Shown piece by piece: positions 9,686 to 46,979 of a DNA stretch of 64,000 nt; within the stretch, counting starts at the first letter, position 1; each line of letters starts with the position of its first letter. Source of the stretch: Patescibacteria group bacterium (GTDB lineage Bacteria; Patescibacteriota; Patescibacteriia; SG8-24); contig JBAYFM010000002.1 in assembly GCA_041667185.1 (NCBI GenBank), positions 23,432 through 87,431 of the forward strand, given 5' to 3'. The position numbers and the translations under genes are program-made. Under the pieces are notes generated by a model, which searched no databases, was not told the origin of the DNA, and saw nothing but the letters and a program-made list of their open reading frames with translations.

Positions 9686-10366
9686 TCAGGACCGATCCGT
9701 CAGACGGGCGACCCGGGCTTTCAAAGAGGCGGCAACCGGCCAGAGGCGCAGATCCTGCCGCAGATGGGCGTAGATGATGGCGCTCAAGATAGCGGAAAAG
9801 AAACACCACGTGGAATAGAACGCTTCCTGGTAAGCCCACAAGGCCAGCGACAGCGCCCCCATGGCCGCCCAACCGAGAACTCGGATGAATTTATGGCTGG
9901 AGATCAGGCAGGGAAAACAAGTGGCGAACACGTACGCCGCCAGGCCGTACGGGATCGGCGGCAAGGTCATGTCGTAAATGACGCAGCCGGTGGCCAGCGA
10001 AGCTGTGATCGGTCCGCGAACCACGTAAGCAGCCAGCCAGGAGCTGAGCGCGACCCCGAAGATCAGCAGGACCCGGAGCGCTGATTTTCTCCGCCCCGGA
10101 GGCTCCAGCGCGCCGACCGCCAGAGGAACATAGAACGGCCACAGCACGTGGGAGAACATGATGTACACGAAAGCCGCTCCCGTCTGCAACCAGGGTGATC
10201 CGGAAGACAACCAGACGACCCCTTCCACGGCTTGTTGAACGCCGAAAAGCAGCGGCATGGCCGCGAGCGGCAGCTGGGACGCGGACTTGGCTTCACGTAT
10301 CGTCAGGACGCCGACGGCGCCGAGTCCGGCGGCGGCAGCGAAACTGGCCGTAGCTGAAAAACACAT
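9686..10366 (-). CDS. Hypothetical polytopic membrane protein
   Basis: The track ORF (9686-10966) overlaps the plus-strand 10610-11776 gene. It was trimmed to the internal Met MCFSATASFAAAAGLGAVGVL... (cat at 10364-10366). Multiple TM helices; no recognisable motif. Confidence 0.45.
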   Translation of the reverse strand: MCFSATASFAAAAGLGAVGVLTIREAKSASQLPLAAMPLLFGVQQAVEGVVWLSSGSPWLQTGAAFVYIMFSHVLWPFYVPLAVGALEPPGRRKSALRVLLIFGVALSSWLAAYVVRGPITASLATGCVIYDMTLPPIPYGLAAYVFATCFPCLISSHKFIRVLGWAAMGALSLALWAYQEAFYSTWCFFSAILSAIIYAHLRQDLRLWPVAASLKARVARLTDRS

Positions 10367-10609
10367 GGCGGAAGTATGACAGATTTTTGATACATCCGCT
10401 ACTCTGAACCGATTCACTGACGATGACGCGCCAGCTAAAAACCAGCATCGCGCCAGCGATCCGAAAAACTGAAAATGACCGCCGCTAGAAATAACCCAGC
10501 CGGGAGCGGGCGTTAACACGGACTTGAAACTTCCGGGCGGCCCGATTAAGGTTGCGGATAGCGTTCTTTTCACGCGGCCGCCGAAGCGGCTGGAAAGGTT
10601 TGGCTGCCC

Positions 10610-30484: not shown

Positions 30485-30577
30485 AAAAGCCAGCCAAGAA
30501 ATTGGCTGGCTTTTGACTCTGAACGCATGTTGATCTCCATATATGTTCACTAAAACCGCAGACGAGCTGCGGTTTTT
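30485..30577. terminator. Two consecutive intrinsic-terminator-like hairpins (30485-30514 and 30552-30577)
   Basis: AAAAGCCAGCC-AAGAAATT-GGCTGGCTTTT and AAAACCGCAG-ACGAGC-TGCGGTTTTT. Both are flanked by A- and T-runs, so they could act in either orientation. Confidence 0.5.
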
Positions 30578-30580
30578 ACA

Positions 30581-30600
30581 TGGCTCCGAGGCTGGGGCTC
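30581..30600 (-). repeat. 20-nt exact copy of the 3' end of tRNA-Asn (att-like direct repeat)
   Basis: tggctccgaggctggggctc at 30581-30600 is identical to 30853-30872 (CCA, discriminator, acceptor 3' strand, T-stem). Similarity stops exactly after the T-stem. The two copies are 272 bp apart. Confidence 0.6.
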
Positions 30601-30814
30601 CTCTTCCCCCGCCGCTCGGGTCTTGGGGCCCCTCGACCTCGGCAAAATATTGAAAGCCTCGGTCGAGCCGCGGTCGCCGTTGCGACCGTTCGCTGCTTCG
30701 CTGGCTTGCGGCTCACCCCAAGCCTCGTGGCTCCTCCAGAGCCCGGGTCATCCGGCGAGTGCCATTCAAGGCACTCGCCGGATGTACCCTTCTCGCCCCA
30801 GCCTCGGTACAATA

Positions 30815-30850
30815 AAGAAGAGGCGGTGCCGTATGGGCACCGCCTCTTCT
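30815..30850 (-). terminator. Strong rho-independent terminator abutting the tRNA-Asn 3' end
   Basis: AAGAAGAGGCGGTGCC-GTAT-GGGCACCGCCTCTTCTT is a perfect 16-bp stem with a U-tract on the minus strand. Confidence 0.7.
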
Positions 30851-30852
30851 TA

Positions 30853-30927
30853 TGGCTCCGAGGCTGGGGCTCGAACCCAGAACAAATGGATTAACAGTCC
30901 ATTGCTCTACCATTGAGCTACCTCGGA
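30853..30927 (-). tRNA. tRNA-Asn (anticodon GTT), CCA encoded
   Basis: Manual fold of TCCGAGGTAGCTCAATGGTAGAGCAATGGACTGTTAATCCATTTGTTCTGGGTTCGAGCCCCAGCCTCGGAGCCA. 7-bp acceptor stem, D-arm GCTC/GAGC, anticodon stem ATGGA/TCCAT with loop CTGTTAA, T-arm CTGGG-TTCGAGC-CCCAG. Confidence 0.9.
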
Positions 30928-31176
30928 ATAATGATTTCCAATGAACGCTTTAACAAATTCGCGGCCGCATCCTGACTTCAACCATTTTTCCCGTTTTCTC
31001 GCTGTTGGCCGATCTGGTGTTTCCTCGCTATAGACCATGACATATGGCCTATGGTTCTTAGTCCACCTGACGTATCCGGAATTATGTTCCTTGAGACGCC
31101 GTGCGAGATCAGAAGTTAAACCAATATATAACGTCCGATCAACCAGACTCCGTAAGACATAAACCTTGTATTCCAT
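30907..31176 (-). CDS. Small GIY-YIG nuclease-domain protein (YhbQ/UPF0213-like). Its last seven codons are the 5' end of tRNA-Asn
   Basis: 89 aa. KVYVLRSLVDRTLYIGLTSDLARRLKEHNSG fits the GIY-YIG core (Y-x-L...YIG, Arg, Glu). The C-terminal ...SEVAQW* is encoded by TCCGAGGTAGCTCAATGGTAG, which is tRNA-Asn positions 1-21. Confidence 0.7.
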   Translation of the reverse strand: MEYKVYVLRSLVDRTLYIGLTSDLARRLKEHNSGYVRWTKNHRPYVMVYSEETPDRPTARKREKWLKSGCGREFVKAFIGNHYSEVAQW

Positions 31177-31179
31177 AAG

Positions 31180-31232
31180 CAGTCCATTGCTCCCTGCCTA
31201 CCGGCAGGCAGGTACCATTGAGCTACCTCGGA
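31180..31232 (-). pseudogene. Duplicated 5' half of tRNA-Asn (acceptor 5' strand, D-arm, anticodon-stem 5' strand) with a 20-nt hairpin inserted in the D-loop
   Basis: Minus-strand TCCGAGGTAGCTCAATGGTA[CCTGCCTGCCGGTAGGCAGG]GAGCAATGGACTG matches tRNA-Asn positions 1-20 and 21-33 around the bracketed insertion. It lies immediately 5' of the GIY-YIG start. Confidence 0.6.
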
Positions 31233-31320
31233 ATATAAACGTATTCCTTGACGGGAATAAGGCTGGCCAAAGAACTGACCGAAATAGTTTAGCACAAGAA
31301 ATAAATTTGGCAACACCGGG

Positions 31321-31600
31321 AGCTGAAAGATCCATTAAAAAGAGAGTGCGGGAGCCACGTCGTTCGCGAACGACGTGGCGGAGTGTGGGAGAGGCTGGAT
31401 TCCCGCTGGAGTGAAACCCCGCACTTGCTGCGGGGCGGGAATGACAATAAAAAGAGGGTGGATTATAAAACCACGAGCTGATCCCCCTTCGCTAAAGCTT
31501 CGGGGGACAAGTCGGAGGATTCGCGAATTATAAAACCCCGAGCTGGCGCTCGGGGTTACATATTGGAGGCGAAGAAGCCGGCCTCATGATCCGATCTCGA
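31321..31600. repeat. Composite intergenic repeat element, copy R1 (GGAG-rich tract, 24-nt perfect palindrome, conserved hairpins)
   Basis: Contains GAGTGCGGGAG, the palindrome CCACGTCGTTCGCGAACGACGTGG (31355-31378), GGGCGGGAATGACA, GGATTATAAAACC plus a hairpin, and ATTATAAAACCCCGAGCTGGCGCTCGGGGTTA. The modules are shared with R2 (32222-32440) and R3 (37125-37440). Confidence 0.6.
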
Positions 31601-32221: not shown

Positions 32222-32440
32222 AGATAGATGAGAGAAACGAAGTCATGGAGTGCGGGAGAGACGGAGTCACGTCGTTCGCGAACGACGTGGCGGAGAGTGC
32301 AGGAGTGCGGGAGTGCGGGAGTAAAGAGGATGGATTATAAAACCCCTGGCTCAATCCCCCTCCGCTGAAGCTGCGGGGGATTCACGAGTCATAAAACCCC
32401 GAGCTGACGCTCGGGGTAAAATTAAGGTGGCGAAAAAAAA
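32222..32440. repeat. Composite intergenic repeat element, copy R2
   Basis: GGAGTGCGGGAGAGACGGAG, the palindrome TCACGTCGTTCGCGAACGACGTGG (32267-32290), GAGTGCAGGAGTGCGGGAGTGCGGGAG, GGATTATAAAACC, and CATAAAACCCCGAGCTGACGCTCGGGGTAAAA. It lies in the 5' region of CPBP paralog 1. Confidence 0.6.
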
Positions 32441-32490
32441 TCGGGCCTGCCAGCTGAGTGGCAAAACCCGATCAAGATGCTGCTGGACGA

Positions 32491-46383: not shown

Positions 46384-46860
46384 ATCAGTTGTGCTCGGAC
46401 GCGTCAACACCCATACCCCCGACCAAACGATGTCATATATTCAATCCCGGATCGAAAATTACAGAAACAATAAATGACCGTTTTAGGGCAACAACGGGCA
46501 GGATCAGCCTGGACTTCCTTTGAGTTATCCAGCATCCCTTGTCTTCCTATGAAGCCAATACCCTTTCAGGGGCCTTCAGAAGCCGGGGCCCAGACCCAAA
46601 CTCAGCAGCTCCCTATTAAAATGAAGCACTGCCTGTAGGGGGAGGGATTTCTGCTCCCCCACTTTGTCCGTGATTCACATCGCGGACTGCGGTTCCTCCG
46701 GTTTCGCTCGCGTAGGATTAGAGATCGCTTGCAAAACCCCGGGCGGCCCTTGCCGCCCGTGCGACACTCGCTAGCTTGCGTCGCACCCCGGGTCATCCGC
46801 TGCGTGCCATACCAGGCACGCCGCGTCTGTACCCTTCGAATCCCTCTTATATAAAGAACC

Positions 46861-46885
46861 GCCTTCCGCCTGAAAGGCGGAAGGC
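46861..46885 (-). terminator. Terminator hairpin immediately 3' of tRNA-Ser
   Basis: GCCTTCCGCC-TGAAA-GGCGGAAGGC is a perfect 10-bp stem followed on the minus strand by GGUUCUUUAUAUAA. Confidence 0.6.
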
Positions 46886-46891
46886 AGTTCT

Positions 46892-46979
46892 TGGCGGAGG
46901 GGGAGGGATTCGAACCCTCGATACCTTGCGGTATACTCGCTTTCCAAGCGAGCGCACTCGACCACTATGCGACCCCTCC
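46892..46979 (-). tRNA. tRNA-Ser (anticodon GGA), long variable arm, CCA encoded
   Basis: Manual fold of GGAGGGGTCGCATAGTGGTCGAGTGCGCTCGCTTGGAAAGCGAGTATACCGCAAGGTATCGAGGGTTCGAATCCCTCCCCCTCCGCCA. Acceptor GGAGGGG/CCCCTCC, anticodon stem CTCGC/GCGAG with loop TTGGAAA, 16-nt variable arm, T-arm GAGGG-TTCGAAT-CCCTC. Confidence 0.85.

Follow-up and report, generated by a model that had tools for sequence, protein, structure and literature searches.

The locus described here raises the question of how an intact tRNA gene comes to lie between displaced pieces of itself. In a 64-kb stretch of Patescibacteria DNA (contig JBAYFM010000002.1; hereafter the window, whose numbering is used for the coordinates of the locus), a tRNA-Asn(GTT) gene is preceded by a small open reading frame (ORF) encoding a GIY-YIG nuclease and by a partial copy of its own 5′ end, which carries a 20-nt palindrome, and it is followed by a copy of its own 3′ end. 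A previous interpretation made from the letters alone (the sequence-only reading) had attributed this arrangement to repeated integration and excision at the tRNA gene. We conclude that a resident tRNA-Asn gene was probably colonised by two separate insertions, each of which left the tRNA intact: a selfish GIY-YIG cassette on the 5′ side and a ~250-nt non-coding element on the 3′ side. The cassette consists of a 5′ tRNA fragment with the palindrome, the GIY-YIG gene, and the intact cognate tRNA; relative to the related genome L207 it is an insertion that kept one intact tRNA and is located behind the tRNA promoter.

The tRNA-Asn locus and its counterparts in close relatives

ARAGORN reported two tRNAs in the window, tRNA-Asn(GTT) and tRNA-Ser(GGA) (46892–46979, minus strand), and both ARAGORN and Rfam support the single intact tRNA-Asn that the sequence-only reading had placed here (Table 1). 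In an Rfam scan of 29.5–32.5 kb, tRNA was the sole credible match; miRNA-like matches were rejected as products of a 76-nt palindrome made up of the tRNA 3′ end, the hairpin after it, and an inverted copy. Upstream of the nuclease ORF, tRNA positions 1–33 recur exactly (20 + 13 nt around a 20-nt insert in the D-loop), as had been claimed; the match of the first part extends 3 nt further upstream (23 nt, 31213–31235), and the second part ends in the anticodon loop, 3 nt ahead of the ATG of the ORF. The insert, earlier called a perfect hairpin, does represent a hairpin, but it differs by one G/T mismatch from the perfect palindrome CCTGCCTGCCGGCAGGCAGG, so that "perfect" was slightly overstated; it is present in a single copy in the window. 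The stop codon of the ORF (TAG) lies within the D-loop of the intact tRNA, and the overlap comprises the first 21 nt of the tRNA, which encode the C-terminal end SEVAQW of the protein; this feature of the earlier description was recovered when the overlap was read, and the ORF is a clear GIY-YIG gene by its Pfam match (see below). Downstream, the exact copy of the tRNA 3′ end is real but 21 nt long rather than 20 nt (30580–30600 is identical to 30852–30872); the two repeats are spaced by 272 bp and bound 252 bp. No 20-mer match for the 3′ repeat occurred in 100 shuffles, and the 5′ copy was likewise unmatched in any shuffle; the features described earlier are real and lie far beyond chance.

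The window stems from a metagenome-assembled genome of Patescibacteria, and its RpoD similarity suggests an Uhrbacteria-like source. The gene order dnaG–rpoD–CPBP is kept in three relatives. In L207 (RpoD 89% identical), the order is rpoD–CPBP–CPBP–promoter–tRNA-Asn, with an uninterrupted tRNA (96% identical to the intact tRNA of the window) located ~140 nt after the CPBP genes and with no ORF and no tRNA fragment at the tRNA-Asn locus. The occupied and empty sites, with the same promoter and synteny, represent a presence/absence polymorphism at a conserved site as expected for a homing endonuclease. The counterpart of the L207 promoter region (TTGCAA ... TGCTAAACT) in the window lies, by alignment, ahead of the 5′ fragment; it is not alignable upstream of the intact tRNA, where GIY-YIG coding sequence is found instead. 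On the other side, the 3′ fragment and the 11 nt that follow it (GTAAAAACCGC, where a hairpin begins) are 96% identical over 28 nt to the 3′ end and flank of tRNA-Asn in L206; this hairpin was not flagged by the terminator scan. Because the 5′ piece keeps the ancestral promoter and the 3′ piece keeps the L206-type hairpin, both fragments appear to be the displaced ends of the resident tRNA gene. The resident gene would hence read, in order, original promoter, positions 1–33, inserted material, positions 56–76, and original hairpin, and the promoter is predicted to drive now the 5′ fragment, the GIY-YIG ORF, and the tRNA.

Occupancy of this locus is patchy: nothing is inserted in L207, a group I intron is present in both L205 and L206, and L206 has arrays of fragments without an ORF in addition. 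The introns (~260–320 nt) split tRNA-Asn(GTT) between positions 35 and 36 (L206, 10572–10967, RF00028 score 52.3 bits; L205, 10736–11078, 36.2 bits), and ARAGORN reported no tRNA at these intron-split genes; position 35/36 has already been described as a group I intron insertion site in tRNAs of Patescibacteria (bioRxiv 10.1101/2025.07.03.662931). Upstream of its intron-containing gene, L206 presents two successive tRNA-Asn 5′ fragments without an ORF (10300–10570), one of positions 1–12 and one of positions 1–20, a ~90-nt D-loop insert, and positions 19–33; each fragment is preceded by a copy of a ~30-nt upstream leader, and the D-loop inserts are different GC-rich hairpins.

Table 1. Features of the tRNA-Asn locus and of the related tRNA-Ser element (positions in the window)
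Feature	Position	Strand	Basis or remark
Candidate ancestral tRNA-Asn promoter (TTGCCA, 16-nt spacer, TG-TAAACT)	31286..31313	-	promoter scan and alignment with L207
Displaced 5′ fragment, part A (tRNA-Asn positions 1–20)	31213..31232	-	exact 20-nt match
20-nt GC-rich palindrome in D-loop of 5′ fragment (CCTGCCTGCCGGTAGGCAGG on tRNA strand)	31193..31212	.	clean insertion, no target duplication
Displaced 5′ fragment, part B (tRNA-Asn positions 21–33)	31180..31192	-	exact 13-nt match
GIY-YIG nuclease ORF (89 aa, catalytic domain only)	30907..31176	-	Pfam PF01541
Intact tRNA-Asn(GTT), CCA encoded	30853..30927	-	ARAGORN; Rfam tRNA 72.8 bits
Perfect 16-bp hairpin directly after intact tRNA (terminator-like, not the ancestral one)	30815..30851	-	outer stem like that of the tRNA-Ser hairpin
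Non-coding spacer (~210 nt)	30601..30814	-	repeats, hairpin, shared core; no Rfam family match
Inverted 13-nt copy of tRNA-Asn 3′ strand	30795-30807		within spacer
15-bp hairpin	30749-30784		within spacer
Core (~53-55 nt), GAAGGGTACA..GGATGACCCGGG	~30742-30795		within spacer
Displaced original 3′ end of resident tRNA-Asn (positions 56–76 + 1 nt)	30580..30600	-	exact 21-nt repeat
Ancestral terminator-like hairpin (GTAAAAACCGCAGCTCGTCTGCGGTTTT), now 3′ of the 3′ fragment	30550..30579	-	ortholog 3′ of tRNA-Asn CCA in L206
Second copy of the 3′ element family, after tRNA-Ser(GGA)	46637..46891	-	hairpin, inverted copy, core, direct copy; no GIY-YIG

Further upstream in the window, related GC-rich hairpin repeats (e.g., GCCACGTCGTTCGCGAACGACGTGGC, as well as ATTATAAAACCNCGAGCTG, which occurs twice) are located in two places, one that separates the 5′ fragment from the first CPBP (Rce1-like) gene (31333–31565) and one that separates the two paralogous CPBP genes (32228–32470).

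A family of GIY-YIG cassettes at tRNA genes

The protein encoded by the ORF matches the Pfam GIY-YIG domain well above the cut-off (PF01541, 54.4 bits versus 22.6, E=1.6e-14, residues 4–67), and an alignment with six homologs shows invariant columns that include Y6, Y17, G19, R27, H31, and E63, so that the conserved catalytic residues (the Tyr of GIY, the Tyr and Gly of YIG, the Arg, and the metal-binding Glu) are present. Sequence searches retrieved the UPF0213 structures 1ywl (1.1e-5) and 1zg2 (2.6e-4) from the PDB as well as SLX1 (5.6e-3); in NCBIfam, only a sub-threshold match to a group I intron endonuclease model was found, which we did not retain. A structure model (predicted local distance difference test, pLDDT, 79.7), in which the domain is followed by one predicted helix and a low-confidence tail, gave Foldseek matches to 1zg2 (2.3e-5) and Slx1 (6seh, 3e-4), with I-TevI at 0.45 only. 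By sequence and fold, the window protein is a minimal stand-alone GIY-YIG protein of the UPF0213/Slx1-like branch: the domain (~80–100 amino acids, aa) stands without an auxiliary domain, its nearest relatives are Slx1 and UPF0213 and not I-TevI or UvrC, and no C-terminal DNA-binding region (NUMOD, zinc finger, or helix-turn-helix) was found in the 89-aa ORF. It shares size, fold, and conserved residues with the UPF0213 and minimal Slx1-like proteins 1ywl and 1zg2, for which no functional annotation was found. Slx1 is a structure-specific nuclease, which suggests DNA hairpins, rather than a long sequence, as the possible substrate. A survey of the superfamily published in 2006 (PMC1564403) presents the Slx1-like proteins of prokaryotes as minimal domains to which no auxiliary domain is attached, and it makes no mention of a genomic coupling of these proteins to tRNA genes.

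The arrangement seen in the window recurs at other tRNAs. Close homologs (P0002, P0005, and P0007) present the same layout and the same palindrome, i.e., the 5′ part of a tRNA with the 20-mer in its D-loop, a few tRNA bases, the ATG, the GIY-YIG ORF, and an intact tRNA; the tRNA partners of such homologs are tRNA-Arg(CCT) in L003 and L004, probably tRNA-Asn in L001, and a class II tRNA in L002. A metagenome scan confirmed 518 relatives, and 80 loci were kept for counts. An intact tRNA on the same strand starts between -40 and +52 nt from the ORF stop in 54 of these 80 loci; the commonest offset is -10, which places the stop codon inside the first ten tRNA bases (in L001, where the sequence was inspected, the stop is a TAG at tRNA positions 8–10). 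A direct 5′ copy of the same tRNA (at least 9 nt, at most 300 nt upstream) was present in 48 of the 54 tRNA-abutting loci, so that a duplication of the target associated with the GIY-YIG gene, which the sequence-only reading had offered as a possibility, turned out to be the rule for the protein family. In most loci the 5′ fragment begins at tRNA position 1 or close to it, and its 3′ ends are spread over positions 15–73; with this spread, the idea that all junctions fall in cloverleaf loops was dropped for the ORF junction, while it holds for the palindrome inserts. The closest relatives of the window locus (L001 and L130) present an Asn-type architecture, with the palindrome at position 20–22 and the fragment end at 33. 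Tandem units of fragment, palindrome, and ORF were found in L148 and L155, and two adjacent GIY-YIG ORFs in L160 and L179. In L093 (2751–4892), a GIY-YIG domain of this subfamily is located within a 714-aa open frame, with the palindrome 40 nt upstream of the domain start; here a protein-coding gene, and not a tRNA, apparently received the cassette.

The cassette family is large, with 5,772 clusters at 50% identity (E<=1e-10) in a profile search that covered 1.84 billion representatives, and it occurs in at least two phyla. Its hosts are cellular genomes, as only 8 viral loci were found. Gene calls for these proteins are often long (at least 95 aa in 96 of the top 150 representatives, P0128–P0277), and the domain often begins at residue 20–60; the extended N-termini often translate the tRNA fragment and the palindrome (e.g., VAELADLPAGRQA), and 14 of the top 150 called proteins contain the translated palindrome (LPAGRQ, PACRQA, and similar), in most cases as part of an N-terminal extension, which suggests a systematic over-extension of start sites in gene calling.

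Several comparisons among cassettes bear on mobility. The nearest-neighbour nuclease is located at a tRNA of the same amino-acid type in 48 of 59 cases, as opposed to 31% expected by chance. In the pairs L159/L198, L139/L161, and L188/L204, a nucleotide similarity of 82–84% is confined to the segment from the fragment start to the tRNA end, and the flanks are unrelated. Between L143 and L163, the stretch that begins at fragment position 8 and takes in the palindrome and the entire ORF is 100% identical (synonymous divergence, dS=0); the syntenic flanks are 65–90% identical, and the adjoining tRNA-Arg(TCG) genes differ by compensatory changes in the acceptor stem and T-stem. This pattern indicates a recent lateral exchange of the cassette core and is indirect evidence for cleavage of an allele without the endonuclease gene and co-conversion. 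Ratios of nonsynonymous to synonymous divergence (dN/dS) of 0.05–0.20 in five pairs show purifying selection on the GIY-YIG protein. Patchy spread, similarity limited to the cassette, an identical tract within diverged flanks, and the dN/dS values together indicate a mobile, functional, tRNA-restoring cassette, which recurs with target fidelity and moves or recombines between genomes.

The palindrome is the third shared component. The tRNA 5′ fragment is usually broken by a GC-rich palindrome, without target duplication or deletion, and the insert sites are in the D-loop (21/22 or 22/23), the T-loop (55/56), and once in the anticodon loop (36/37). Palindromes with CCTGCC predominate at the loci of Arg, Asn, Thr, and Leu tRNAs, and Gln loci have a longer type (CCCGCC...GGCGGG); L146 gives a hint that palindrome type co-varies with nuclease clade. 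Homologous cassettes at other tRNAs have the 20-mer of the window at the corresponding place, and the commonest form (CCTGCCTGCCGGCAGGCAGG, the perfect version of the window insert) is sequence-identical across phyla. A search of species-representative genomes and viral contigs with the exact 20-mer CCTGCCTRCCGGYAGGCAGG, R/Y being permitted at the two central wobble positions, located it in at least 120 genome stretches (L005–L124) and in 48 viral contig stretches (L208–L255); the taxa include Patescibacteria, Bacteroidota (with isolates), Omnitrophota, Planctomycetota, Nitrospirota, Chloroflexota, Proteobacteria, and Bdellovibrionota. Among the genome matches listed, ~6% lie inside tRNA fragments, and most copies are solo and intergenic; fragments with the palindrome are accompanied by a GIY-YIG gene in L029, L056, and L097 and lack an ORF in L007, L010, L025, and L048. 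Some contigs contain 2–4 copies, and one copy is nested near the centre of another in L024, L030, L069, and L182. Around the 120 palindrome loci no recurrent neighbouring protein family was found, and the inserts in the cassettes are clean 20-nt insertions without target duplication; the signs of a REP/RAYT-like or MITE-like element (a cognate RAYT/TnpA transposase, or terminal inverted repeats with a target-site duplication) were thus not found. That solo palindromes always sit in hairpin loops was considered and rejected, since the enrichment is modest (flanking stem of at least 6 bp in 14.6% versus 3.1% of controls). In L025 (4018–4225), one tRNA gene is nested within another: a tRNA gene is split into a 5′ part with the palindrome and a 3′ part (...GGTTCGATTCCCACCCCTGACACCA), and an intact gene for a different tRNA, tRNA-Met, is found in between, with no ORF. 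Pure coincidence is argued against by the location of the sole copy of the 64-kb window exactly in the fragment D-loop and by the presence of such an insert in most fragments; the palindrome appears to be a conserved cross-phylum component of the cassette, a cassette-linked cis element and not a random insertion. Its sequence was not found in any paper searched.

The 3′ element and the competing explanations

The inserted DNA on the 3′ side has a sister in the same window. Behind tRNA-Ser(GGA), which has no GIY-YIG gene and no 5′ fragment, a hairpin directly follows the CCA, a 12-nt inverted T-arm copy is located at 46835–46846, and a spacer of ~190 nt leads to a direct 13-nt copy of the T-loop/3′ strand of that tRNA (46637–46649), 261 nt from the original, as compared to 272 nt at tRNA-Asn. 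Neither this build nor the inverted 13-nt copy at tRNA-Asn figures in the sequence-only reading. The core at 30742–30795 is 81% identical over 53 nt to 46787–46837, 3′ of tRNA-Ser, and both spacers have a GGGGGA..AG motif next to the direct copy. An analogous inverted and direct pair of T-arm copies lies 3′ of tRNA-Asn in L206, and when the 252-nt spacer was compared by BLAST with all loci retrieved, matches outside this genome were confined to its tRNA-derived ends. From these similarities, the ~250-nt element appears to belong to a small family of repeats whose ends are specific to each tRNA, and it does not depend on the nuclease. Since the sister at tRNA-Ser lacks a GIY-YIG gene and a direct 3′ fragment is found in only 14 of the 54 tRNA-abutting GIY-YIG loci, the 3′ element is probably an insertion separate from the cassette.

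Both fragments could be the attL/attR scars of a tyrosine integrase, with the GIY-YIG gene as cargo or bystander. Such an origin would explain why a direct repeat of the tRNA 3′ segment bounds inserted DNA, and the repeat runs from the T-loop to CCA+1, the sublocation that Williams reportedly gave as typical of integrase att sites (NAR, 2002). The form of an att pair, a displaced 3′ end with a restoring copy, therefore stands from the sequence-only reading, but the repeats bound only 252 bp of non-coding DNA, and no integrase or recombinase domain was detected in the ORFs scanned against Pfam (at least 110 aa, 20.7–28.3 kb, and five ORFs in 27.8–33.1 kb), where only restriction-modification, Vsr, NYN, HEPN, Fic, and methyltransferase domains were found. 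A foreign island does adjoin the locus: a low-GC block (43–53%) of ~7 kb (window ~23.5–30.5 kb) encodes a MutH/Sau3AI-like endonuclease, a C5 DNA methylase, Vsr, an NYN-domain protein, an S-adenosylmethionine (SAM) methyltransferase, and two proteins without a Pfam match, and is a defence/restriction-modification island. It is absent in L205, where a HEPN-protein ortholog is found ~200 nt after tRNA-Asn, so that the suggestion of its entry here is supported to that extent; the island lies outside the tRNA direct repeats, though, it has no integrase and no flanking repeat, and no further copy of the tRNA 3′ core that could serve as a distal att site was found within 3 mismatches. To our knowledge, integrative elements restore the 3′ part of the tRNA and not the 5′ part, and the 5′ arrangement recurs with a GIY-YIG gene and without an integrase in dozens of loci, which contradicts an integrase origin of the 5′ part. 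For the 3′ element, the tRNA-specific ends of the two sister copies make a single integrase core site an unlikely source. No evidence for repeated integration and excision by an integrase was found, and we regard integrase scars as an unlikely explanation of the two fragments.

An origin without any mobile element is about as improbable. The GIY-YIG protein would then be a host factor co-transcribed with tRNAs, e.g., to process structures at highly transcribed tRNA genes, and the fragments would be decaying tandem duplicates. Strong purifying selection, the tight and conserved coupling to the tRNA and its promoter, the vertical inheritance of some cassettes, the L206 arrays of 5′ fragments with hairpin inserts but no ORF, and a fold shared with repair-type Slx1 nucleases are all consistent with domestication; the cassette is absent, however, at the same locus in the closest relatives, and the occurrence of cassettes in unrelated surroundings, a tract of 100% identity amid diverged flanks, tandem arrays, multiple tRNA targets, and the same 20-mer across phyla speak against it. 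Least probable is the remnant of a group I intron, i.e., an ancestral intron at 35/36 of tRNA-Asn whose ORF and spacer were left after a rearrangement around an intronless copy. L205 and L206 do carry such introns in this tRNA, and the 5′ fragment of the window ends at position 33–34, beside that site; yet RF00028 was not matched in the window at E<=1, the spacer has no similarity to the L205 and L206 introns, and the fragment ends of the wider family are not tied to intron sites. Moreover, the ORF-bearing introns described at 35/36 encode HNH and not GIY-YIG endonucleases (bioRxiv 10.1101/2025.07.03.662931).

A proposed mechanism and its relation to known systems

Under the favoured explanation of two insertions, the cassette would be selfish and transcribed from the captured tRNA promoter. 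Its nuclease may stimulate recombination or gene conversion at cognate tRNA genes, which are also its presumed cleavage target. The tRNA sequence on both sides of the ORF would be the only homology conserved between genomes, so that a break in a naive cognate tRNA gene would be repaired from the cassette-bearing copy and the ORF copied in; products without an intact tRNA would be removed by selection, and the cassette would be tolerated because one intact tRNA is always left. For the palindrome, candidate roles are a structured substrate of the nuclease, a block to deletion by recombination between the repeats, and an inactivator of the leftover fragment; it may be mobilised by these nucleases or may merely accumulate in dispensable tRNA copies. 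A more far-reaching proposal, which we put forward as speculation and consider doubtful as it stands, is that the minimal Slx1-like GIY-YIG nuclease and the 20-nt palindrome form an unrecognised mobile system, in which a structure-specific nuclease would act on hairpins (the palindrome and the D-, anticodon-, and T-arms of tRNA genes), insert the palindrome cleanly into loops, and drive into the tRNA genes of various bacterial phyla a cassette that captures the promoter and complements itself. If true, this system would unite a tRNA-gene drive with a GIY-YIG analogue of REP/RAYT.

Several observations weigh against a selfish, mobile cassette. The 89-aa protein lacks a DNA-binding domain, and we know of no sequence-specific homing endonuclease of that size. 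The 3′ ends of the fragments are scattered and do not converge on one site. As the cassette restores an intact tRNA, it would have no evident immunity were the tRNA gene itself to be cleaved, and the model does not account for the adaptation of the cassette to new tRNA species. The window fragments are identical to the intact tRNA, so that the sequence distinguishes neither the foreign copy from the resident one nor an in-place duplication from an insertion. No relative of the window nuclease exceeds 59% identity, which leaves no sign of recent movement of this copy, and several cassette pairs are syntenic and simply vertically inherited (L156/L192 and L148/L190). Among the genomic palindrome matches listed, most are solo and have no GIY-YIG gene in the 8-kb loci; as these copies have no recurrent neighbour gene either, the link between nuclease and palindrome could be indirect.

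In its working, the cassette resembles a free-standing homing-endonuclease unit that has adopted the target restoration known from tRNA-integrating islands and fungal mitochondrial GIY-YIG ORFs. As with SegB and other Seg proteins of T4-like phages, the GIY-YIG gene is found among or beside tRNA genes; SegB has ~220 aa, whereas the window protein has 89 aa, consists of the catalytic domain only, and is nearer to UPF0213/Slx1. Furthermore, descriptions of the SegB loci mention no duplicated piece of the target tRNA that is broken by a palindrome, and the cassettes reside in cellular genomes of several phyla and not in phages. SegB of T4 recognises a motif of tRNA genes, T-psi-C, and drives the inheritance of its tRNA region (PMC2330249), and it promotes segmental amplification of the loci on which it acts (PMC13096335); recognition of a tRNA motif, driven inheritance, and local amplification make it an experimental precedent for the proposed mechanism. 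The C-terminal part of SegB contains a NUMOD3 DNA-binding motif, and SegB is grouped with I-TevI among the GIY-YIG homing endonucleases (PMC2330249). The cassette nuclease, which has no DNA-binding region, falls outside the Seg/I-TevI type. Integrase islands likewise insert into a tRNA gene, supply a replacement, and leave a terminal fragment as a direct repeat; the cassette replaces the 5′ part, thereby capturing the tRNA promoter, has no integrase, and is a unit of ~300 bp, and it fails membership among integrase elements on account of the missing integrase and the 5′-side restoration. The 3′ element of the window differs from such islands in being 250 bp of non-coding DNA.

Among fungal mitochondrial GIY-YIG ORFs, Paquin et al. 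reportedly described in 1994 a mobile one in Allomyces atp6 that carries a piece of the host gene. These ORFs resemble the cassette in that an endonuclease ORF enters an essential gene together with a replacement segment and the old piece stays as a pseudogene fragment; they differ in their protein-coding organelle targets, long ORFs, and lack of an invariant palindrome. A related case is the intron-mediated duplication of host-gene fragments (PMC7315562). REP/RAYT systems and yeast mitochondrial GC clusters offer a parallel for the palindrome: both comprise dispersed, short GC-rich palindromes, sometimes nested, as seen here, with suspected or known mobilisation in trans by a hairpin-recognising nuclease or transposase. 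RAYTs are HUH/Y1 transposases, and REP sequences are species-specific, unlike the 20-mer, which is identical across phyla and most listed copies of which have no GIY-YIG gene nearby.

The cassette family of GIY-YIG gene, tRNA fragment, and palindrome is apparently undescribed; our literature search on GIY-YIG nucleases with tRNA fragments or in the Candidate Phyla Radiation (CPR) found no description of it, with subscription journals mostly uncovered and a prior description possible. While tRNA genes are classic landing pads for mobile DNA, the mechanisms known to us are those of integrases, which restore the 3′ end, and of group I introns. The window and roughly 100 related loci would represent a third, apparently undescribed strategy, in which a nuclease gene of ~270 bp is placed between the displaced 5′ piece and a rebuilt copy of the tRNA, a position by which it would take over the tRNA promoter. 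That Patescibacteria, Bacteroidota, Planctomycetota, and Proteobacteria share a 20-nt palindrome of identical sequence demands an explanation in terms of an enzyme. For genome annotation, the cassettes create pseudo-tRNA fragments and inflated N-terminal ORF calls, and for the UPF0213 and minimal Slx1-like proteins, whose function is unknown, they would provide the first biological context.

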